DNA of 64,000 nucleotides. Source: Anaerolineales bacterium (GTDB taxonomy: Bacteria > Chloroflexota > Anaerolineae > Anaerolineales > JABWBV01). The stretch lies in NCBI GenBank assembly GCA_035512695.1, contig DATKDL010000146.1:3547-67546 (forward strand). The letters are read 5' to 3'. The notes below the pieces were generated by a model, which ran no database searches, was not told the origin of the DNA, and saw nothing but the letters and a program-made list of their open reading frames with translations. The position numbers were made by a program, and so were the translations under genes. Within the stretch, counting starts at the first letter, position 1. Every line of letters starts with the position of its first letter. Below are positions 12,285 through 21,795 of this stretch, in pieces.

Positions 12285-14132
12285 ATGAAGGTATCCAGGT
12301 CGGACCTGATCCTCGAGGCCCGCATGGCCTTCGATGCGGGGGACACCCGCAGGGGTAGTGCGATCCTGCACGGTATTTTCACAGAAGATATCACCTATCT
12401 TCCGGCCTGGGAGCTGCTGCACGCCGCGCTGAATCGCTCGGAACCGTTCGAGGAATTTCAGCTGGACTTTGTCAGGAGATATTATCCGGCTAAACTCGAT
12501 CGGTTCCGGTCGGGAGATGGGGATGGGCCGGAAAGGACGAGCACCGGCAGTCCATACCGCAGGGTCTCATTGAAATCATCGGGTTTGAGGGGAGGAGAAC
12601 GGAAGACCGCCACAGATTCCGATCGGCCGGAGGAAAGCCCCCGGACGCAGGAAGCCGGCTTTCCCGGGGATGAAAAACAGGCTGAGAAGCAAGGGCTTTT
12701 TGCGCGCTTGCGCGGTTTCTTCAGCCGGCTGGCGACTCGCCGGCGTTCCAAGCGCAAGCGTACCGACAGCGCGGCGGAGGCGGTGTCCGGCACCGGTCTG
12801 GACGCCGATGCGAAATTTGCGCCTATTTCACTCAAAGATTTGCCGGCCAGGGAGTCGAGTGCCCAACCGTCCGCCCGTGAACGAAAGCAGCGCCGGGTGG
12901 ATTCCGGTCCTATGCTGACAAAGCTCCATGAGGAGCATTTCGAGATCCGGGTCGTGATCGCCGACGACATCCAACAGACCCGCGAAAACATCCAGAAACT
13001 GCTCAAGTTCGAGCCGAGTGTGGAAGTCGTGGGTATCGCCGCGCACGGGGAGCAGGCAATCGAACTCGCCCTGGAGCACGCGCCGGATATCGTTCTGATG
13101 GATATCAACATGCCGGGGATGGATGGTCTCCAGGCGCTCAAGACGATACGCGAGAGACTGCCGCTGACCCAGGTGATCATGCTCACCGTCCAGGACGATC
13201 CCGGCTACTTGCGCGAGGCGTTGCAGTTCGGGGCGCGGGATTACCTGATCAAGCCCCCGACGATCGATGAGCTGCTCAACACGATTCACAAAACCTACGA
13301 AATCGGCAAACAGGAGCGCGAGCGTTTGACCCGGATGTTCACACCACCTTCCGAGACGACCGTCGAGGAAGCCGTCGACGCCAACGGCTTCGCCATCGCC
13401 GTTTACAGCCCGAAAGGTGGGGTCGGCTGCACGTTCCTGGCGACCAACCTGGCGGTCGCAGCGCAGGCGGACGATCGCTCGGTCGCGCTGGTCGATTGCG
13501 ATCTGCAGTATGGTGGGATTGGGCTCTTCTTCAACGAACAGGCGCGCAACTCGATCGTCGACCTGGCGCCCCGAGTGAAGGACCTCGACCCAAACATTTG
13601 GCGCGATGCCGTGGTCACGCATCAAGGCTCCGGCGTCCGGTTGATCCTGGCACCGAACCGGCCCGAGCTGGCGGAAGCCGTCCACGGAGAGCAGCTGGTC
13701 GAATTGGTCCGGGTGCTGCGCAAGCGCTTCCAGATCGTCATCTTCGACACGGGCAGCAGCCTGGACGGGAGGACGGCCGAACTCATGGCCGAATGCGACC
13801 AGGTTGTCGTCGTCCTGACACAGGATATTCCGGCGATCCACGAGGTGCGGCAGCTGCTGGATTTTGCGCCAAAGTTCGGTCTGGCAGAGGGGAAGATCTC
13901 GCTGGTGCTGAACCAATATCACCGGCGGATCAACATCACCCCGGAGCAGATCAGCAGGAGCCTCCGGCGAGACCTCGCCGCCGTGGTCCCGATGGACAAT
14001 CGCACGGCGATCCCTTCGGTCAATCGGGGGATCCCGTTCATGCTCGGCGCAGAAAACCGGGCGCTGCCGATCGGCCGAGCGGTACAGGCGTTGGCCGATC
14101 GGGTGATCGACCGGCAGATGGTCGCGGTTTAG
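12285..14132 (+). CDS. response-regulator receiver fused to a CpaE/TadZ-ParA/MinD-like ATPase, with long basic low-complexity N-terminal region
   Basis: 615 aa. REC motifs (VVIADD...VLMDINMPGMDG...YLIKP). Deviant Walker A YSPKGGVGCT. Starts 3 nt after the lpdA stop. Confidence 0.75.
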   Translation: MKVSRSDLILEARMAFDAGDTRRGSAILHGIFTEDITYLPAWELLHAALNRSEPFEEFQLDFVRRYYPAKLDRFRSGDGDGPERTSTGSPYRRVSLKSSGLRGGERKTATDSDRPEESPRTQEAGFPGDEKQAEKQGLFARLRGFFSRLATRRRSKRKRTDSAAEAVSGTGLDADAKFAPISLKDLPARESSAQPSARERKQRRVDSGPMLTKLHEEHFEIRVVIADDIQQTRENIQKLLKFEPSVEVVGIAAHGEQAIELALEHAPDIVLMDINMPGMDGLQALKTIRERLPLTQVIMLTVQDDPGYLREALQFGARDYLIKPPTIDELLNTIHKTYEIGKQERERLTRMFTPPSETTVEEAVDANGFAIAVYSPKGGVGCTFLATNLAVAAQADDRSVALVDCDLQYGGIGLFFNEQARNSIVDLAPRVKDLDPNIWRDAVVTHQGSGVRLILAPNRPELAEAVHGEQLVELVRVLRKRFQIVIFDTGSSLDGRTAELMAECDQVVVVLTQDIPAIHEVRQLLDFAPKFGLAEGKISLVLNQYHRRINITPEQISRSLRRDLAAVVPMDNRTAIPSVNRGIPFMLGAENRALPIGRAVQALADRVIDRQMVAV

Positions 14133-15316
14133 ACCAGGTTCTCGTAAAAGGCCCCGGCCCGGGGCATGACGTTCCCGTACAAAGCCCGTTCAGAGATCAT
14201 TTTCAAGTTGTGCAGCCGCGCGCGGCTTCGGATGACCGGATCTCCCAGGCATTCCAGGATCGCCGAGGCGATCGAAACCGGCGAGCGCGGGTCGACGAGC
14301 AAACCATTTAAGCCCGGCGTGATCCATTCCCGGATCGATTCGAGATCGCCGGCAATCGGGAAGCAGCCGCAGGCCAGGGCTTCGAGCAGGGAGTTTGGCG
14401 TGCCGTCGTGGGTGGTTGGGGAGAGGATGACGGCGGCGCGCCGGAAGAGGGCGGCCAGTTCGGTCTGCGGGAGCGCCGGGAGCAGGCGGATGGCGTGTTC
14501 GATCCCGAGTTTCCCGGCGAGGGCGGCGAGTCGCGGATCGCCGGCTAATCCCGGGCAGTCGAAGCGGACGTCGGGAGCGTGATCCAGGACGGCCGGGACG
14601 GCATGCAGGAAGGTTTCATTTTCGACGTAGGCCCGCAGCCCGCGCGGCTGGACGATCCGCCGGGGATCGACGCCATCGGGGTCGCCGGGGAAGAAGATTT
14701 TGGGGCGGACGCCGCCGCCGCCGGGGATAACGGCGGTGGGGGTGGGTCGTGGGAGGCCTATTTCATAAGCCAGGCGGATATCGCGCCGGCAGTCTGCCAG
14801 GAGGGCGTGAGTGGTGGTGAGGGCTTGTGCGGTGAGGGCGGCGATGGTCGGATCGGCGGCTGCGTGCAGGGTGAGGTCGTTGCCCCAGACGGACAGCACC
14901 AGCGGCGGCATGCGTATAGCCAGTTTTGCGGCGGCGGAATATGCGGCTGCGGCGAGCAGGCCTTCGAACGGGATCCGGAGCGCGTGAACCAGGTCAGGCT
15001 CCACTCCCACAATGCGCCGCTGCAGCGCTGCAGACCGGCGACCGAGCGTCCAGGCCCGGACCCTGCGCAGCACGACCGCACGGGAACCGGGCGCCGTCCA
15101 ACGCCGGAGCCAGTTCCCCGATCCACCGGTCGAGCCGGCCAGCCGGGCGAAAGCCGCCGGGATCTCTTCATAGGATGCCAGTCCGGGCAGCGGTGTGGCC
15201 GGGAAGGTGGAGACCAGGTGGACCTCATACCGGTCGTCCAGGAGAAAATATTCCATCCAACCGGCTGCGGTGGGTGAGCGCCCGTCGGCGATAAATAGGA
15301 GCTTCATCGCAGTCAC
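14129..15316 (-). CDS. glycosyltransferase family 4
   Basis: 395 aa. C-terminal GT4 signature (SPTTHDGTPNSLLEALACGCFPIAGD). GTG start at 15316 overlaps the upstream stop; alternative ATG at 15307. Confidence 0.8.
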   Translation of the reverse strand: MTAMKLLFIADGRSPTAAGWMEYFLLDDRYEVHLVSTFPATPLPGLASYEEIPAAFARLAGSTGGSGNWLRRWTAPGSRAVVLRRVRAWTLGRRSAALQRRIVGVEPDLVHALRIPFEGLLAAAAYSAAAKLAIRMPPLVLSVWGNDLTLHAAADPTIAALTAQALTTTHALLADCRRDIRLAYEIGLPRPTPTAVIPGGGGVRPKIFFPGDPDGVDPRRIVQPRGLRAYVENETFLHAVPAVLDHAPDVRFDCPGLAGDPRLAALAGKLGIEHAIRLLPALPQTELAALFRRAAVILSPTTHDGTPNSLLEALACGCFPIAGDLESIREWITPGLNGLLVDPRSPVSIASAILECLGDPVIRSRARLHNLKMISERALYGNVMPRAGAFYENLV

Positions 15317-16440
15317 GAAACGGCCAGCACCGCTTCGACAAACCGGTCAGCCATCCTCTCGATGTTGATCTCCTCGACGGTGATCCGCCGGCTCTCCGCG
15401 CCTTTTCGCCCCAAACCCGACGGGTCGGACAGCGCGGCTTCCAGGGCTGTTCGGAGGGCATGATTATCCAGTGCCGGGACGAGCCAACCGTTCTCCGGGC
15501 GGACGAGGTCCTCCTGGGTCCCATCCCCCTCGGCGACGATGACCGGCAGCCCATAGCTCATCGCCTCCTGGACGGCCAGCCCACCTGTGCCGGGCAGCAC
15601 GAAAAGATCGGCCCCGCGGAAGGCAGCGGCCAGGGCTTCGCCTTCCAGATGGCCCATGAACTCGATCTGGATGGATAGATCGGCGGCCTGTCTCTCCAAC
15701 CCGTCGCGAGCCGGCCCGTCCCCGACGATTCGGATCAACGGCTGCAGATTCTCCGGGAGTGCGGCACAAACCGAAAGCAGCACATTGACCCGTTTACGCG
15801 ACTGCAGCCTGCCGGCGAACAGGACGATCAACTTCCCTGGTCTCGACCCGGGCGCAGCGGGCGGATACCCCGGCGACGGTGCGACGGCATTGTACCCGGT
15901 GAAGATGCGGTCCTGCGGGAAGAAGCCGGTGGCCCGGTATTCCTCCGCCCCCCGGCTCGAATAGGCGATGATCCCGTCCAGGGCTTTCAGCAGCCTGGCA
16001 CGGGCGGCCTCCCGCAAGCCGGTTCTGAACCCATTGGACTTCTCCACCCCGAGCCCCCAGCCCAGCACCGGCCTACGCCGGGTCTGCATCCACGCGATTG
16101 CGCCAAAAGTCGTCCAATAACGCGGGTTGGCTTCGACGATCAGGACTTCGGGATCGATGCGTTTCAACCAGTCCATCAGCTGCGGTTGTCTGCAAAGGTA
16201 AAGCGGGTGACCCGGATGGAACAGGTGCATGTTCCTACCGGTAACGTGCGCCGCGATTTGCGGTACGGCGCCGGACGGGATCGTTTCTGCTTCGAGCGGG
16301 CTCCCTGAAAAAAGCGCCAGGCCTCCACGGCATCTCCGCGCAAGCTCGTCAAAGAACGCAACGCGGTAGCTCGGCAGGACCCGCTGCTGAATCGCCAATC
16401 GGCCCGGGTACTCGATCACGGATTTTCGCCGGGGAGGCAC
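15313..16440 (-). CDS. glycosyltransferase family 4
   Basis: 375 aa. GT4 motifs (LFAGRLQSRKRV..., LPGTGGLAVQEAMSYGLPVIVAEGDG). Confidence 0.8.
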   Translation of the reverse strand: MPPRRKSVIEYPGRLAIQQRVLPSYRVAFFDELARRCRGGLALFSGSPLEAETIPSGAVPQIAAHVTGRNMHLFHPGHPLYLCRQPQLMDWLKRIDPEVLIVEANPRYWTTFGAIAWMQTRRRPVLGWGLGVEKSNGFRTGLREAARARLLKALDGIIAYSSRGAEEYRATGFFPQDRIFTGYNAVAPSPGYPPAAPGSRPGKLIVLFAGRLQSRKRVNVLLSVCAALPENLQPLIRIVGDGPARDGLERQAADLSIQIEFMGHLEGEALAAAFRGADLFVLPGTGGLAVQEAMSYGLPVIVAEGDGTQEDLVRPENGWLVPALDNHALRTALEAALSDPSGLGRKGAESRRITVEEINIERMADRFVEAVLAVS

Positions 16441-17279
16441 ACCAGGTAGGCTTTCTGGGCGAGATCGCCGGGATTTTCCACGCGCGGATAAGCTGTTCGC
16501 ATAGCGTGTACTCGATATTGCAGGCGAGATAAAGTTTCCCAGGCCGCCGCAGCGGCGTCCGGGCCGTGGAGTTCGAGAAAAATGACGGGACAGGTCATTT
16601 CCAGCGTCCGAACCATCCCCGACAGCGCAAGTGCCTCGCCGCCTTCGATATCGATCTTGACCAGGTCAGGCGGGGGATGGCCGAGTTCGATCACGAAATG
16701 GTCGATCGAGATGCCCGGCACCGTGATCGTATCGCCGCGATCCTGGGGATCGGCGCCCGGCTCAATTACCCGACCGGTCGCATGGGATGCGCCACGAATA
16801 AAACGCACCTCCCGGTTTGCATCGATCACCGCTGCATGCGTGATTGTGACGGTGGATTCGAAGCCGTTCAGCCTGACATGTTCGTCCAGCCGCGCGGCAT
16901 TCTCCGGCAGGGCCTCGAAAGCGAACACCCGGCCGGTTTCCCCGGTCATCCTCGCCATCAGCAGCGTGATATAGCCGATATTCGCGCCGATGTCGTAAAG
17001 GGTCATCCCGGGTCCGGCGAAATCGGCCATAGCCTGGTGGAGCTGCGGTTCGTACGTGCCCAGCCAATAATCCTTTTCGCTTTGCAGGTCAAGGACCATT
17101 CTGGAGCCGGCCAACGGTCCGGCGGCGACGGCGATCTCGGCGTGGCCGGCCGGTGCGGCCCGGTTGAGGGCTTTGCGGATCAGGCGGGTGACCGGTCCGA
17201 GCCGGTACATTCCCTGCCGCAGCGGCCCGGGGAGCAGCCGGGCGATCCGAGCCGAAGTTTTGAGGAGGAAGCTGCCCAT
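16416..17279 (-). CDS. FkbM family methyltransferase
   Basis: 287 aa. YDIGANIGY SAM motif and FkbM-like C-terminal KIDIEGGE. Confidence 0.8.
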   Translation of the reverse strand: MGSFLLKTSARIARLLPGPLRQGMYRLGPVTRLIRKALNRAAPAGHAEIAVAAGPLAGSRMVLDLQSEKDYWLGTYEPQLHQAMADFAGPGMTLYDIGANIGYITLLMARMTGETGRVFAFEALPENAARLDEHVRLNGFESTVTITHAAVIDANREVRFIRGASHATGRVIEPGADPQDRGDTITVPGISIDHFVIELGHPPPDLVKIDIEGGEALALSGMVRTLEMTCPVIFLELHGPDAAAAAWETLSRLQYRVHAMRTAYPRVENPGDLAQKAYLVCLPGENP

Positions 17280-17287
17280 CGACTGCC

Positions 17288-18607
17288 TTAACGGACCTGC
17301 CAGCCCAGTTTCTCCATATAATCCTTGATCCGGACCACACCGATCATCCTTTCGTAGTAGAAGTTATTCACCACCCGGATCACCTCCGCCCGGGCGACCT
17401 CCGCTTCTTCGCTCAGGCCCTCACTGGGATCGTGCCGGCCCAGTTCGTCCCGAAGCCGAAGGAGCAGGCTCACGATCGCTTCCTCCTCGCCGCCTTCGAG
17501 GACCCGGATGACGAGCATGATCAGTTCCTGGGCCTGGGCCATCAACTGTTCCTTCGAAAAAGTCGATCCCGGGAAGAAGACATCGTCGATCGTCCGGATC
17601 AGGGCCCAGATCTGGTACAGGACGGTCGCGGGTTCGTCGAAAAGCTCGCGCAGATACAGGGCTTCCTCGTAGCGCCCGGTCAGCCGGAACACGTTGTACA
17701 TGCGCTTGGCGGCTTTGCCGTAATTCAAGTCATCGGTGATGTATTTGGCGATCTGCTCTTCCAGCGCGTCGACGTATTCATCTAATGCGTTCCCGGCGAC
17801 GTTCCGGGCCAGCTTGGAGAAGATCGGGATCGACTCGGCTTCGAGATAGACTTCCTGGAAGTACGGGTCCAGGTATCCGTCGAGCGCTACGATGCTTCCG
17901 TCCGGCGCTTCCCAGGTGACATCGAGCATGTTGCTGGCGTTGATCAGTTCCTTTCGAAGCGGATCGGCCACGACCCAATCCAATTTCGTCCATCCCGCAT
18001 TGTGCGCCATCGCCTCCCAGTCCAGGCGGACGGGTTCGCCTTCCGGGGATGTGCCTTCGACAAAGCCGCGCTCGATCTCTTCAGGCGACCAGGTCAGCGA
18101 ACCGCCGGCTTTGTTCAGCCGGCCGTCGCGAACGACATCGGAAGGATATGAGCCCATGCGGACCTCAATCAGCTGGTAGTGATCGCCTTTGCGCGTGTCG
18201 AGCGCCTTCCGCCGCAGGATCCGGCTGAGGATGCGGCAGGCCTCTTCCTGCGTCGGGGCTTTGATATTGACTCTTTCAAAGAAATCGGCGTCGCCGGGGT
18301 ACGTCTGGATTTTGGACTGGGCCGCCGAGCCGGAAAGCGCCAGCGCCGTCTCGACCACACCCGGTTCGTCGCCGAACTCGACCAGGTCCCCGATCTTGCG
18401 GAAGTGGGCCAGGTCGGCCGAGGAGAAATCCAGCATGACGGCTTTGTGCCCGAACACGCCGGTCCCGACATCGACGACGACGTCGCCCTCTGTCGGGTTG
18501 GCCGCCATCTGGGCCAGCCACTGGAGGGCATCGGCCTCATCGATAACGACTCCCAGGCGTTTCGCGGAGGCGATAATTTGCTTCAGATCGGTTGTTTGGT
18601 CGGACAT
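17288..18607 (-). CDS. uncharacterised protein with Pol-beta-superfamily nucleotidyltransferase-like core and C-terminal helical domain
   Basis: ORF 17288..18892 trimmed to ATG 18607 (MSDQTTDLKQ...), preceded by SD AAGGAGAG. Contains LSGSAAQSKIQTYPGDADFFERV, i.e. GS-x11-DxD spacing typical of minimal NTase folds. Later candidate third-carboxylate strands are KLDWVVAD and MLDVTWE. About 170 aa of helical C-terminus. Confidence 0.45.
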   Translation of the reverse strand: MSDQTTDLKQIIASAKRLGVVIDEADALQWLAQMAANPTEGDVVVDVGTGVFGHKAVMLDFSSADLAHFRKIGDLVEFGDEPGVVETALALSGSAAQSKIQTYPGDADFFERVNIKAPTQEEACRILSRILRRKALDTRKGDHYQLIEVRMGSYPSDVVRDGRLNKAGGSLTWSPEEIERGFVEGTSPEGEPVRLDWEAMAHNAGWTKLDWVVADPLRKELINASNMLDVTWEAPDGSIVALDGYLDPYFQEVYLEAESIPIFSKLARNVAGNALDEYVDALEEQIAKYITDDLNYGKAAKRMYNVFRLTGRYEEALYLRELFDEPATVLYQIWALIRTIDDVFFPGSTFSKEQLMAQAQELIMLVIRVLEGGEEEAIVSLLLRLRDELGRHDPSEGLSEEAEVARAEVIRVVNNFYYERMIGVVRIKDYMEKLGWQVR

Positions 18608-18635
18608 GGTCTCTCCTTTTGTACCGGATCGGTTT

Positions 18636-19196
18636 TTATGAACTTGCGTTGGAGTCGCGCAGATCGTCGAGGATCCGGGCGAACAGTTTTGCCTGGTCGA
18701 TCGCGTCTTCCAGGGCGTTGTGCCGAAAAGTGTGATCGAGTGGGTAATCTCGCTGGAGCGCAGCGCCGGCCTGTCCGAAATTGGTGAGCTGTTTGAAACC
18801 CATGTAAAAGGCCTTGATGTCCAGCGCGTTGTGCCCGAATGGATTGCGGGCGAGATACCGGTGGAAATAATCGTTGACAAACATCCAATCAAAAGCGGCG
18901 TTCAGCGCCACGAACACCGGGCGGGTATTCGCCGGCGTATGCCGCTCGATCCAGCCGGCGAAGGCCGCCATCGCTTCGGCCGGCGCAGTTCCACCGGATT
19001 CTAACCGCTCGCGGGAGAGTTTGTGGATCTGCATCGATTCAGGGTCGAACCGCTCACGGTCCGGCTTTAGTTCGCAGTAATAGGTCGTACCGGGATCGTC
19101 CAACAGGCAGGCGCCGATTGCGAGCAGCGCGCAATCAGATGGGTTCGGGCCGGCCGTTTCGATGTCGACGGAGAAGTGGATTTCGGCAGGTGTCAT
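18636..19196 (-). CDS. DEDDh (DnaQ-like) 3'-5' exonuclease
   Basis: 186 aa. Exo I FSVDIETAG, Exo II LNAAFDWMFV, Exo III HNALEDAIDQA. The start overlaps the stop of the upstream glycosyltransferase by 4 nt. Confidence 0.8.
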   Translation of the reverse strand: MTPAEIHFSVDIETAGPNPSDCALLAIGACLLDDPGTTYYCELKPDRERFDPESMQIHKLSRERLESGGTAPAEAMAAFAGWIERHTPANTRPVFVALNAAFDWMFVNDYFHRYLARNPFGHNALDIKAFYMGFKQLTNFGQAGAALQRDYPLDHTFRHNALEDAIDQAKLFARILDDLRDSNASS

Positions 19197-20236
19197 TTCT
19201 CGAGCAGCTCCTTAAGATAGGCCTGGACCATCCTGTCCAGCACGAACATCTTTTCAGCCCGCGCGCGCGCCGACCGGCGGTACACTGCCTGGTTTTCGAA
19301 AACCTGCGCTGCGGCGCGCGCCAGCCCCTCGGTATCCGGCGGTTCCAACTGCCACGGGTCGCCGCCGTAAGGAGCAATGCCCCCTGCATCGGTCCCGACC
19401 AGCTCGCGCAGCGCGCCGGTGTCGAAGGCGGTGACCGGCAGGCCGCAGGCGAGGGCTTCGATCACGGCGTTCGGGCAGGCGGGGTTCAGGTCGGCCGAGA
19501 ACAGGACATGCGCCGAGCGGTCCAGCGCCGGGATCTCGGCCGCCGGTACCCACCCCAGCCATTCGATCGCGTCGTCGTTGAACCGAGTCTGGATTTCGGC
19601 GGATACCCGGCCCGCCACGACCAGTTCGACCGGAAGCGGCAGGATCTCGCTCAATATGGCGCGCAGCCGGACGGCCGTGTCGAGCCCGGCTTCATACCCT
19701 CCCTGGAGGTTCCCTTCGACGAGCAGCAGCCTGAAATGATCGGTGGGTCTCTCTTCGGGACCTTCCGGCGTGTACCGGTCCAGATCGACGGCGTTGTGGA
19801 TCACGACGGCGGGCTGCCGGGCGGGTCCGTACGACCGTTCCCACCAGTCCTGTACGAACCGGCTCTGGTAGACGATCCGGTCAGCGTACCGGTCCCGGAT
19901 CGTCTGCAGCAGCAGGTTTCCGATTTCGGCGCGCAGGGTGTGGCGGATCCCGGTCCGGCGGTGGCGGTGGATCCAGTTGATCCCGTCCAGGCGCTGGACG
20001 ATCCGGATCCCGCGCCGCCGCGCCCGGCGCAGCCCCGCCAGGTCCCGCGTCCCGCCGATGACGAGCACCGCAGCGAGATCCGGGTCGTCGACGCCGGCCG
20101 CGATCCGGATTCCGCGGTTTGCCAGCCCGGTGGTAAGCTTGTCCCGGAAACTGACCATCCCGCCCACGCCGTGGACATGCGGGATAAGACCGATCGTTCT
20201 ATGATCCATGCTCGGAATTGTATCCGGCGGAGGCAA
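19193..20236 (-). CDS. glycosyltransferase (GT4/GT1-like)
   Basis: 347 aa. C-terminal NPACPNAVIEALACGLPVTAFDTGALRELV motif. Alternative start at 20209 (MDHRTIGL...). Confidence 0.75.
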   Translation of the reverse strand: MPPPDTIPSMDHRTIGLIPHVHGVGGMVSFRDKLTTGLANRGIRIAAGVDDPDLAAVLVIGGTRDLAGLRRARRRGIRIVQRLDGINWIHRHRRTGIRHTLRAEIGNLLLQTIRDRYADRIVYQSRFVQDWWERSYGPARQPAVVIHNAVDLDRYTPEGPEERPTDHFRLLLVEGNLQGGYEAGLDTAVRLRAILSEILPLPVELVVAGRVSAEIQTRFNDDAIEWLGWVPAAEIPALDRSAHVLFSADLNPACPNAVIEALACGLPVTAFDTGALRELVGTDAGGIAPYGGDPWQLEPPDTEGLARAAAQVFENQAVYRRSARARAEKMFVLDRMVQAYLKELLEK

Positions 20237-21017
20237 ATTCCAACGATCGTGCGTTGATCGCGGCTGCTTTGATCTCCAGCCACTGCGGCTCCGGACAGCC
20301 GTGAAGCCCGTACCGAAGCCGGCCCTCCGGAGTGAACGCGGCGAACTGGTTGTCGATCCAGATCACCAGCGCCAGCGGTGAGGCTGGGGATACCCGGGTC
20401 GTGTGCACCAGGTCGCCGTCGATCCGGAAGTCGACCGAATCCCGGCCCCATACCAACCGGTATTCGTGTTCGCCGGTGACATCGATCCCGGCGGGTGCGC
20501 TGCCCGATTCATGAATTACGCGCCGGCTGAGGTACGTGCGCAGCCTGCGGGCCACCGGGGTTATGGCGAACAGCGGCAGGCCGAACAGGACCGGCAGCAG
20601 CTTCCGGATAGGCTGGTCCGTGGATCGGAACGTCTGGGCGAGGAAACCCCGGCCCGGCAGGTCGTCCCGAAAAGTCAGATGGCTTGCGCGGGGGGCATAA
20701 AAGAACCAGGCCGCTTGCGGCAGCGCCGGCAGCGGATCGGTTCTGCCGAGACCGAGCGAGAACTTCCCCGGTGCATTCCAGAACCCGAACCCCCAGGTTC
20801 CCGGGACATCGGCAGAAACCGCACGGGCGCGCAGGGAGAGATCGACGGGCGGGGACCATGGATACGCCTTTCTTCGCAGACCTGCGTAATCATCGACCTG
20901 GGCCAGCCGCACGCGGCGGCTCGACCCGGAGGGGATATCCAGGCGCAGACCCCCGGTTTGAATCTCCTTGACCTGGGCGCCGGTCGAGTATCTTTTACGG
21001 ACGTAGAACGGTTCCAC
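20199..21017 (-). CDS. hypothetical protein, possible ConA-like/GH16-like beta-jelly-roll; first gene of the glycosyltransferase operon
   Basis: 272 aa. Motifs GTWGFGFWN and LVIWIDNQ resemble a beta-sandwich lectin/glucanase fold. No confident family assignment. Confidence 0.4.
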   Translation of the reverse strand: MEPFYVRKRYSTGAQVKEIQTGGLRLDIPSGSSRRVRLAQVDDYAGLRRKAYPWSPPVDLSLRARAVSADVPGTWGFGFWNAPGKFSLGLGRTDPLPALPQAAWFFYAPRASHLTFRDDLPGRGFLAQTFRSTDQPIRKLLPVLFGLPLFAITPVARRLRTYLSRRVIHESGSAPAGIDVTGEHEYRLVWGRDSVDFRIDGDLVHTTRVSPASPLALVIWIDNQFAAFTPEGRLRYGLHGCPEPQWLEIKAAAINARSLEFASAGYNSEHGS

Positions 21018-21100
21018 GCAGGATATTATAAGATCTAGATGGTAACTACTCAGCCAATTTTTCCCGGAATTTCAGCCGCAGCCTGAGTGATTACTCCAGA

Positions 21101-21109
21101 TGTTATAAT
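21101..21109 (+). promoter_or_regulatory. extended -10 TGtTATAAT in AT-rich divergent intergenic region
   Basis: gatgttataatt read at 21099..21110. It lies 42 nt upstream of ATG 21151, which has SD AGGAG. Confidence 0.45.
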
Positions 21110-21150
21110 TCCTCGTTCGAGTTCGAAATCACTTGCTCACAGGAGCCTTA

Positions 21151-21795
21151 ATGGAAATTGCCTGGTACGGTTTATCTTGCTTCCGTCTGACCGAGCGTGG
21201 GAAAGCGACCGTCGTCACTGACCCCTATGATCACACCCGGATCGGCTATGGGGCGCTCAAGTTGCGCGCCGATATCGTCTCCGTCAGCCACGATGCACCG
21301 GGTCACAACCACGTCAAGGCGGTCAAAGGTGTGGAGCACATCATCGACGGTCCGGGGGAATACGAGATCGGGGAAGTATTCATCACGGGCGTTCGCACCC
21401 AGACCGGAAAGCGGTCCAGGAACGGCTCGGGTTCGAATACCCTTTACGTCTTCGATTACGATGGGGTCACGATCGCTCATCTTGGAGATTTGGAGCGCAC
21501 CCTGACCCAGTCCGAGGTGGACGCCCTGGGCACCGTCAGCGTCGCGCTGGTGCCGGTCGGAGGCGGGAGCAGCATGTCGGCTTCGCAAGCCGCTGAAGTG
21601 ATCAGTATGCTGGACCCCGGAATCGTCATCCCGATGCATTACAAAACCAGCGAGACCTCTCTTAAGCTCGAGCCGCTGAGCAAATTCATTAAGGAAATGG
21701 GCCTGGGAACGGTGAAGCCTGTGGCTGCGCTCAAGGTGACCCCTTCATCGGTACCGGAAGAAACCCAGGTCGTCGTGCTCGACCCGGTAAGTTAG
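21151..21795 (+). CDS. MBL-fold metallo-hydrolase (UPF0173-like)
   Basis: ORF 21133..21795 trimmed to the ATG after SD AGGAG. Begins MEIAWYGLSCFRL...; contains VSHDAPGHNH. Confidence 0.75.
   Translation: MEIAWYGLSCFRLTERGKATVVTDPYDHTRIGYGALKLRADIVSVSHDAPGHNHVKAVKGVEHIIDGPGEYEIGEVFITGVRTQTGKRSRNGSGSNTLYVFDYDGVTIAHLGDLERTLTQSEVDALGTVSVALVPVGGGSSMSASQAAEVISMLDPGIVIPMHYKTSETSLKLEPLSKFIKEMGLGTVKPVAALKVTPSSVPEETQVVVLDPVS

Follow-up and report, generated by a model that had tools for sequence, protein, structure and literature searches.

A Cap18-family exonuclease and a predicted nucleotidyltransferase form a conserved gene pair in Anaerolineae

The 64,000-nucleotide (nt) stretch of DNA analyzed here, which we call the window, comes from an Anaerolineales bacterium (GenBank assembly GCA_035512695.1, contig DATKDL010000146.1, positions 3,547 to 67,546 of the forward strand). 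Within a minus-strand operon of seven genes, among three GT4 glycosyltransferases and an FkbM methyltransferase, lie the gene of a 186-amino-acid (aa) DEDDh exonuclease and, directly after it, that of a 439-aa protein from a family without annotation, called X in what follows. An earlier note, made from the sequence of the window, had singled out these two genes and had found their tight coupling to polysaccharide genes unexpected. We report that exonuclease and X are a unit kept over hundreds of Anaerolineae species, that the exonuclease is a relative of Cap18 from cyclic oligonucleotide-based antiphage signaling systems (CBASS), and that the pair is self-contained and unrelated to the glycosyltransferase and FkbM genes that flank it. 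The features of the locus are the following.

21017 to 14129, minus strand: run of seven tightly packed open reading frames (ORFs), from ORF reading
18636-19196, minus strand: DEDDh exonuclease, 186 aa, Cap18 or CBASS-associated Exo family (Pfam, NCBIfam, PADLOC, PDB match)
17288-18607, minus strand: protein X, 439 aa, unannotated family, predicted Pol-beta-type nucleotidyltransferase (NTase; AlphaFold2 [AF2] model, Foldseek)
18269 to 18337, minus strand: NTase signature of X, L91-S-G93-S94-x11-D106-A-D108-FFERV (sequence)
17921 to 17923, minus strand: D229 of X, in the motif NMLDVTWE, candidate third catalytic carboxylate (invariance in 29 members)
18611 to 18618, minus strand: Shine-Dalgarno-like AAGGAGAG before the X start codon (sequence)
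19193 to 19196, minus strand: ATGA, 4-nt overlap of the GT4 stop with the exonuclease start (sequence)
20199-21017, minus strand: first ORF of the operon, 272 aa, fold not assigned (Pfam, AF2)
19193-20236, minus strand: GT4 glycosyltransferase upstream of the exonuclease (Pfam and NCBIfam)
16416-17279, minus strand: FkbM methyltransferase downstream of X (Pfam and NCBIfam)
15313-16440, minus strand: second GT4 glycosyltransferase (Pfam and NCBIfam)
14129-15316, minus strand: third GT4 glycosyltransferase, last of the operon (Pfam and NCBIfam)
19193 to 21017, minus strand: upstream context of the pair, GT4 plus the 272-aa ORF (Pfam, NCBIfam, AF2)
14129 to 17279, minus strand: downstream context of X, FkbM methyltransferase plus two GT4 (Pfam, NCBIfam)

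Apart from the label given to the first ORF, gene order and gene families had been read correctly in the earlier note, including the start of the exonuclease within the stop of the preceding glycosyltransferase and a Shine-Dalgarno sequence belonging to X itself. The mechanically called ORF at 17288-18892 would give 534 aa; its best start is the ATG at 18607, which yields the 439-aa protein and is preferred because AGGAG sits 5 nt upstream. The exonuclease stop is separated from the X start by 28 nt, and the X stop from the FkbM start by 8 nt.

The motif region of X, LSGSAAQSKIQTYPGDADFFERV, holds G93-S94, 11 residues, and D106-x-D108. S92, G93, S94, D106, and D108 are invariant in 38 X orthologues; over 29 family members, which reach down to 26% identity, their conservation is 90% or more. 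As a regular expression, GS-x11-DxD was matched in 119 of 120 close homologues, the single miss being an artefact of the expression, and in 54 of 60 distant representatives in which this part of X is covered, where the exceptions mostly resemble frameshifted fragments. Because it is conserved in orthologues and distant family members alike, the motif is not a chance match. The 29-member alignment has only 10 invariant columns, and besides the signature they include D229 (in LDxTW), D243, R302, Y304, and R308; K298 and N305 are nearly invariant. A third acidic residue, which the earlier note had asked about, is therefore conserved as well. The likely third carboxylate in the model described below is D229, on the long strand 220-233, with E148, mostly acidic across the 29 members and on a predicted strand, as the alternative. 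Further along, the helical lobe of X carries a conserved basic patch, G-K298-x-A-K-R302-x-Y-N, whose place probably corresponds to that at which OAS- and cGAS-type enzymes hold the triphosphate.

The AF2 model of X was built from the 38 orthologues and has a mean predicted local distance difference test (pLDDT) score of 75.7; the core at 60-250 is mostly above 85, and the N-terminus (1-58) is disordered or uncertain. An NTase domain (about 60-255, with a beta-rich insert at 155-205) is followed by a C-terminal helical domain (about 259-438), which the earlier note had also placed there. The motif covers the last part of strand 85-92 and the beginnings of helix 93-100 and strand 106-116, the strand-helix-strand placement of Pol-beta NTases. 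Searched with Foldseek against the PDB, the model gave three significant matches, all to Megavirus chilensis Mg662 (4AMS, 4XUL, and 4AMQ; E 5e-7 to 2e-5, probability 1.0, about 430 aligned columns). OAS1 came next at E 0.02, then Pol mu and the CD-NTase DwCdnB at E 0.2-0.3. Fifteen proteins of virophages and giant viruses were matched in BFVD (E 8e-14 to 7e-6), among them proteins of Zamilon, of the Yellowstone Lake, Qinghai Lake, and Mavirus virophages, of Klosneuvirus and Tupanvirus, a “V21 virophage-like protein,” and a Pithovirus “nucleotidyl transferase.” The model thus supports a predicted Pol-beta-superfamily NTase fold with a C-terminal helical domain, in line with the structure search that the earlier note had proposed. 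Its likening of X to CD-NTase/SMODS enzymes is an analogy, since the CD-NTase/SMODS, OAS, and MNT sequence models are unmatched and the best structural relatives are those of the Mg662/virophage family.

By sequence, X is without a match in Pfam, NCBIfam, PADLOC, or PHROG, and single-sequence and profile searches against PDB sequences returned none. CD-NTase/SMODS profiles gave nothing in Pfam, and 0 PADLOC families matched at E up to 1. The family comprises more than 6000 clusters at 90% identity, every one unnamed or “hypothetical”; those that bear an organism name belong to Anaerolineae/Chloroflexota metagenome-assembled genomes (MAGs) or to Bellilinea caldifistulae. Among GTDB species genomes, at least 558 carry X. 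Representatives at 50% identity, searched exhaustively, gave only 526 matches, and the family is therefore narrow but deep. Within the 38 orthologues, column identity averages 73%, the N-terminal 60 residues are conserved (W30 among them), and long blocks are invariant: PGVVETALALSGSAAQSKIQ, NASNMLDVTWEAPDG, LDGYLDPYFQEVY, NYGKAAKRMYN, and RELFDEP.

The partner of X can be placed with more ease. All motifs that the earlier note had listed for the exonuclease are present (DIETAG, NAAFD, and HNALEDA), and its DEDDh residues are D11, E13, D103, H159, and D164. Pfam assigns it to PF16473 (7e-13) and PF00929 (2.5e-11). The PADLOC model PDLC00753, “Effector; Exonuclease,” matches over the full length at E 2.6e-59 and 198 bits, against E 1.2e-17 and 63 bits for a generic DEDDh model, and the NCBIfam equivalog scores are all far below their cut-offs. 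Its sole close relative in the PDB is 7T2S (E 1.4e-37), which is E. coli Cap18 (PMC11981726); RNase T follows at E 4e-5. Identity to E. coli Cap18 (WP_001258365.1) is 41% over the full length. The VcExo residues D9, E11, P15, D49, E51, N97, D101, H157, and D162 correspond, by a constant offset of +2 and not by alignment, to D11, E13, P17, D51, E53, N99, D103, H159, and D164 of the window exonuclease; the equivalent of the stacking F120, which VcExo receives from the partner protomer, is ambiguous (F120 or H122). By these sequence comparisons, the exonuclease is a clear homologue of Cap18 and the CBASS-associated Exo.

Cap18 was named in a study in which the catalytic-dead mutant had no effect on phage protection (PMC9122588). 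A more recent preprint (10.1101/2025.03.04.641389) reports that CBASS Exo proteins, the E. coli protein included, cut 2'-5' dinucleotides and 2'-5' oligoadenylate (2-5A) and leave ordinary DNA and RNA intact, SmExo being inactive on single-stranded (ss) or double-stranded (ds) DNA or RNA. According to the same work, the Cap18/Exo family cleaves 2'-5'-linked intermediates of bacterial cGAS and thereby creates an activation threshold.

We turn now to what surrounds X elsewhere. Neighborhoods were compared in 83 non-redundant X loci and in 80 of the GTDB species loci; nearly all of these 80 are labeled Chloroflexota/Anaerolineae, and two older MAG records are labeled Armatimonadetes. In 62 of the 83, the gene directly before X on its strand is that of the exonuclease, and clustering of neighbors shows it to be the only widely recurring neighbor family. 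The gap between the two genes ranges from -11 to +117 nt in the gene calls. The pairing of exonuclease and NTase, noticed at first in one genome, is therefore widespread. Other frequent neighbors are glyQS (21 loci), dnaG (12), and a downstream DUF3786 gene (9); these reflect subclade synteny. The DUF3786 gene (about 225 aa, Pfam E 4e-43) comes after X, in the same orientation and at little or no distance, at L010 (3117-3794), L015, L019, L025, L026, L027, L042, and L062 among others (L numbers denote our sampled loci), and the trio of exonuclease, X, and DUF3786 is the arrangement of one subclade.

The pair is not only common but also strongly conserved. Calibrated between related loci, median identity over the same genome pairs is 70% for X, 62% for glycyl-tRNA synthetase (GlyRS), 60% for DnaG primase, and 58% for the exonuclease, and pairwise identities of X and exonuclease correlate with r = 0.71. 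(The GlyRS and DnaG genes are both absent from the window.) These figures point to a vertically inherited, strongly constrained function and not to a fast-evolving defense gene.

Two rival explanations must be weighed at this point. In the first, which we regard as doubtful, X would add nucleotides to a stable RNA (tRNA, rRNA, or small RNA) at its 3' end, in the manner of class I CCA-adding enzymes, poly(A) or poly(U) polymerases, or terminal uridylyltransferases, and the exonuclease would trim that end as RNase T does. An NTase followed by a helical domain is, at the level of fold, common to poly(A) polymerase (PAP) and CCA enzymes; X is conserved at the housekeeping level, above GlyRS and DnaG; glyQS or dnaG flank the pair in some genomes; the exonuclease weakly matches RNase T models; and a review describes Cap18 as a 3'-5' exonuclease on ssDNA and ssRNA (PMC10419184). 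Yet the exonuclease is far nearer to Cap18 than to RNase T, SmExo does not act on DNA or RNA in the preprint, and PAP and CCA enzymes are not among the significant Foldseek matches of X. Nor did Rfam scans of the window and of 11 loci detect a riboswitch or any other RNA in the vicinity of the pair.

The second, unlikely in our judgment, holds that X nucleotidylylates a protein or a small molecule, either by AMPylation of the GlnE/DrrA kind or as MenT and KNTase enzymes do, with the exonuclease as an unrelated, syntenic housekeeping nano-RNase. All such enzymes have the G[GS]-x9-13-DxD motif and the fold in common, and the N-terminal 60 residues with W30, together with the insert at 155-205, could be a partner-binding surface. 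Against this, exonuclease and X evolve in correlation and are often translationally coupled, in two phyla, which argues for a functional link, and the structural match, taken over the whole length, is to Mg662/OAS-type two-lobe enzymes rather than to minimal NTases.

The polysaccharide genes of the window call for a different kind of evidence. Homologues of the GT4, FkbM, and 272-aa genes are found near X in none of the 80 GTDB species loci. In an 80%-identical relative (L092), the order is exonuclease, X, 4HBT, FkbM, GT4, GT4; in one at 71% identity, the orthologue of the upstream GT4 is split from the pair by the gene of a 2018-aa S8 peptidase. The flanks change while the pair stays, so the pair is the unit. 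The glycosyltransferase and FkbM context is incidental and local to close relatives, and since it appears in them only, the function of X should not be derived from the glycosyltransferase operon; the tight coupling to polysaccharide genes that the earlier note had remarked on is synteny of this local kind and no property of the pair. It is accordingly very improbable that X takes part in polysaccharide or glycoconjugate synthesis, as a LicD/fukutin-like phosphotransferase or as an NTase that activates or decorates sugars alongside GT4 and FkbM. The tight packing, kept in the 80%-identical relative, speaks for such a role, as does one distant family member in which carbohydrate-binding AbfB, FBA, and C-type lectin domains are joined to the X domain behind a signal peptide. 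Beyond the neighborhoods, in which a 4HBT or peptidase gene may intervene and leave the pair intact, it is countered by the constant partner, an exonuclease without a role in glycan synthesis, and by the lack of a LicD Pfam match for X or any of the 29 family members. On the evidence of the 80 GTDB and the 83 non-redundant loci, the glycosyltransferase and FkbM genes were rejected as functional partners of the pair.

Some further observations on the operon can be recorded here. The 272-aa product of its first gene had been labeled ConA-like, which is not confirmed: its sole Pfam match is a 27-residue GH16 fragment at E 0.048, and a single-sequence AF2 model (pLDDT 34) was too poor for a fold search. 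The start of this gene has no upstream overlap, and a divergent plus-strand gene lies opposite at 21133. A promoter and terminator consensus scan of 14000-21300 gave counts not above those of shuffles, and the operon was not split. At the other end, a plus-strand gene for a 615-aa fusion of a response-regulator receiver with a ParA/CpaE-like ATPase (12285-14132) converges on the operon, its stop overlapping the last GT4 by 4 nt; the same gene also follows the GT4 genes in L092, again on the opposite strand. The 4HBT gene of L092 (1922-2407, a 161-aa thioesterase between X and FkbM) is not in the window. In one Anaerolineales MAG, a T-box leader (RF00230, 110 bits; L033 3238-3460, minus strand) precedes the pair at a distance of about 2.5 kb and is probably unrelated to it.

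Could the pair be a defense system? Its exonuclease belongs to a family otherwise known from CBASS operons, and one may imagine a minimal CBASS-like or OAS-like anti-phage system with X as a divergent cyclase, the exonuclease as regulator, and an unlinked effector. Some settings of the family would fit. A clade of Cyanobacteriota has the pair as well (X 38% and exonuclease 45% identical, with a 4-nt overlap), and on the MAG contig in question (L097 5813-10662) it lies between two Uma2 endonuclease genes and a HepT/MNT toxin-antitoxin pair, with an integrase near; these surroundings suggest that the cyanobacterial pair arrived by horizontal transfer. Distant X homologues, moreover, occur near trypsin-like proteases, PQQ propellers, and an AAA_16 STAND-like protein. 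We nevertheless consider this quite improbable. Profile scans and neighbor clustering found no CBASS cyclase, effector, or regulator in the window operon or the related loci, the 83 loci show no recurring effector-like neighbor, and the PADLOC cyclase models do not match X. A scan of IMG/VR viral contigs found no copy of X, and its conservation above GlyRS, with a divergence that tracks the exonuclease, suggests vertical descent, unlike that of defense genes. The pair is not a CBASS system.

The divergent branches deserve a description of their own. Distant homologues (35-40% identity) lack the exonuclease and are preceded by PrsW-protease, zinc-ribbon (DZR), and trypsin-like genes. In Deinococcus peraridilitoris (L096, CP003382.1, 4798-14025), the X homologue is 40% identical, has no adjacent exonuclease, and overlaps by 4 nt a downstream gene for a 962-aa PQQ-type beta-propeller; PrsW-protease and trypsin-like genes lie upstream, and the AAA_16 STAND-like gene is near. 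A Thermomicrobiales homologue likewise lies downstream of PrsW-protease and zinc-ribbon genes, and L089 (4943-8976) is a distant locus with this PrsW/zinc-ribbon context. In the PrsW/trypsin/PQQ setting, the X family may occupy another kind of context, one resembling that of conflict systems. Two metagenomic proteins, P0171 and P0255 (1067 and 1291 aa), are fusions with the X domain at the C-terminus; one type carries a PQQ_2 propeller and the other a signal peptide with AbfB, FBA, C-type lectin, and PLAT domains, and both keep SGS...DxD and GKVAKRLYN. P0220 and P0263, also of the X family, begin with signal-peptide-like segments. These sequences hint that some family members are secreted, which would be odd for an enzyme that uses nucleoside triphosphates (NTPs). 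The divergent contexts fit no single simple story.

The reading we favor, tentatively and at somewhat less than an even chance, is that exonuclease and X form a vertically inherited module of synthase and degrader with a short, possibly 2'-5'-linked, nucleotide product. X, laid out like OAS, cGAS, and Mg662 with an NTase lobe and then a helical lobe, would most likely hold two metal ions through D106, D108, and D229 (or E148), and from NTPs it would build a short oligonucleotide, linear or cyclic and plausibly with 2'-5' links. The Cap18-family exonuclease would hydrolyze the linear 2'-5'-linked product or intermediate of X and set the level or threshold of the nucleotide, as the CBASS-associated Exo does for bacterial cGAS. 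Since no effector accompanies the pair, inheritance is vertical, and GlyRS and DnaG both diverge faster than X, what the pair makes would probably serve housekeeping, as a signal or a metabolite, rather than trigger abortive infection. Computation supports the gene pair and its conservation, the motif and predicted fold of X, the placement of the exonuclease with Cap18, and the incidental glycosyltransferase context; for NTP polymerization, 2'-5' chemistry, and the relation of synthase to degrader, we infer from family resemblance and from the preprint on CBASS Exo (10.1101/2025.03.04.641389). The earlier note had been reminded of synthase/degrader or tailing/trimming pairs. The exonuclease, as a Cap18/CBASS-Exo homologue, lends the synthase/degrader idea unexpected support, which is limited by X, whose best structural relatives lie in the Mg662/virophage family. 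Overall, the observation made in that note is confirmed and its interpretation partly supported, with none of its refuting outcomes borne out: an NTase fold was predicted, the GS and DxD residues are conserved, and the pair is not unique to this genome.

It is important to remember that a number of results weigh against this reading. The fold assignment comes from a single AF2 model, whose confidence is moderate (pLDDT 75.7, template modeling [TM] scores of 0.45-0.56). Across the 29 family members, Pfam at E up to 10 matched no NTase model (NTP_transf_2, Polbeta, SMODS, Mab-21, OAS1_C, and PAP being the models concerned); the 29-member profile, run against all PDB sequences at E up to 10, did not match Mg662; and hhalign of X with E. 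coli CdnC gave a probability of 0.2. A literature search for Mg662, 4AMS, and 4XUL found no paper that gives a function for Mg662. About a quarter of the loci are without an adjacent exonuclease, distant clades pair X with PQQ beta-propeller and PrsW-protease genes, and no effector, HORMA/TRIP13, E1/E2, or CapW gene recurs beside the pair in the 83 loci. Finally, the 2'-5' specificity of Cap18 is reported in a preprint, and the earlier review (PMC10419184) gives the enzyme a different substrate.

A bolder version of the synthase/degrader reading is possible, yet well short of likely: X may be the synthase of an undescribed, probably 2'-5', messenger for ordinary physiology and the exonuclease its dedicated turnover enzyme, across the Anaerolineae and in some Cyanobacteriota. 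The pair would then be a non-defense cousin, or even the source, of the CBASS cyclase/Exo pair, and X the bacterial counterpart of the Mg662 enzymes of giant viruses and virophages. What is new is an NTase with a Cap18-type exonuclease outside CBASS, on a protein family without annotation. If the proposal were true, a class abundant in sediments, digesters, and hot springs would carry a conserved, unannotated family of nucleotide-making enzymes, with a constant partner from an exonuclease family so far known only in anti-phage CBASS operons. Nucleotide chemistry of the 2'-5'/cGAS-like kind would reach from immunity into core physiology, the CBASS Exo would have a testable origin, and the Mg662/virophage NTases would gain a first functional handle.

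Four known systems offer themselves for comparison. RNase T, oligoribonuclease, and DnaQ share the DEDDh catalytic core of the window exonuclease, although RNase T-type exonucleases are much farther from it than Cap18 (E 4e-5 vs 1e-37). In CBASS (E. coli upec-117 and Serratia marcescens), an NTase-fold gene, the cyclase, likewise stands beside the gene of a DEDDh exonuclease of about 185 aa and of the same family, Cap18, and the window exonuclease keeps the catalytic residues of CBASS Exo and has, at the +2 offset, candidates for the substrate-contacting ones. X, however, is not recognizable as a CD-NTase by sequence, and the pair is without a Cap effector, HORMA/TRIP13, E1/E2, or CapW gene in the 83 loci. 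Inheritance of the pair is vertical and class-wide, with conservation at the housekeeping level, whereas CBASS is patchy and located in defense islands.

OAS1 and the 2'-5' phosphodiesterases follow a like logic, that of a 2'-5' NTase with a dedicated hydrolase, and Cap18-type Exo is reported to degrade 2-5A (10.1101/2025.03.04.641389). OAS1 is also the next PDB structural match of X after Mg662, weak as it is at E 0.02. On the other side, X has no OAS1_C match in Pfam, and neither an RNA activator nor an RNase L-like receptor is in evidence.

The “new nucleotidyl transferase” Mg662 of Megavirus chilensis (4AMS, 4AMQ, and 4XUL, the last a GTP complex) is among the best whole-length structural matches to X. 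Together with the virophage and giant-virus proteins (Zamilon, Sputnik V21-like, and the Pithovirus NTase), it aligns with TM scores of 0.45-0.64 and with both lobes covered. Sequence identity of X to this family is 9-16%, with no sequence-profile link, and X differs from Mg662 in being bacterial, chromosomal, and paired with an exonuclease.

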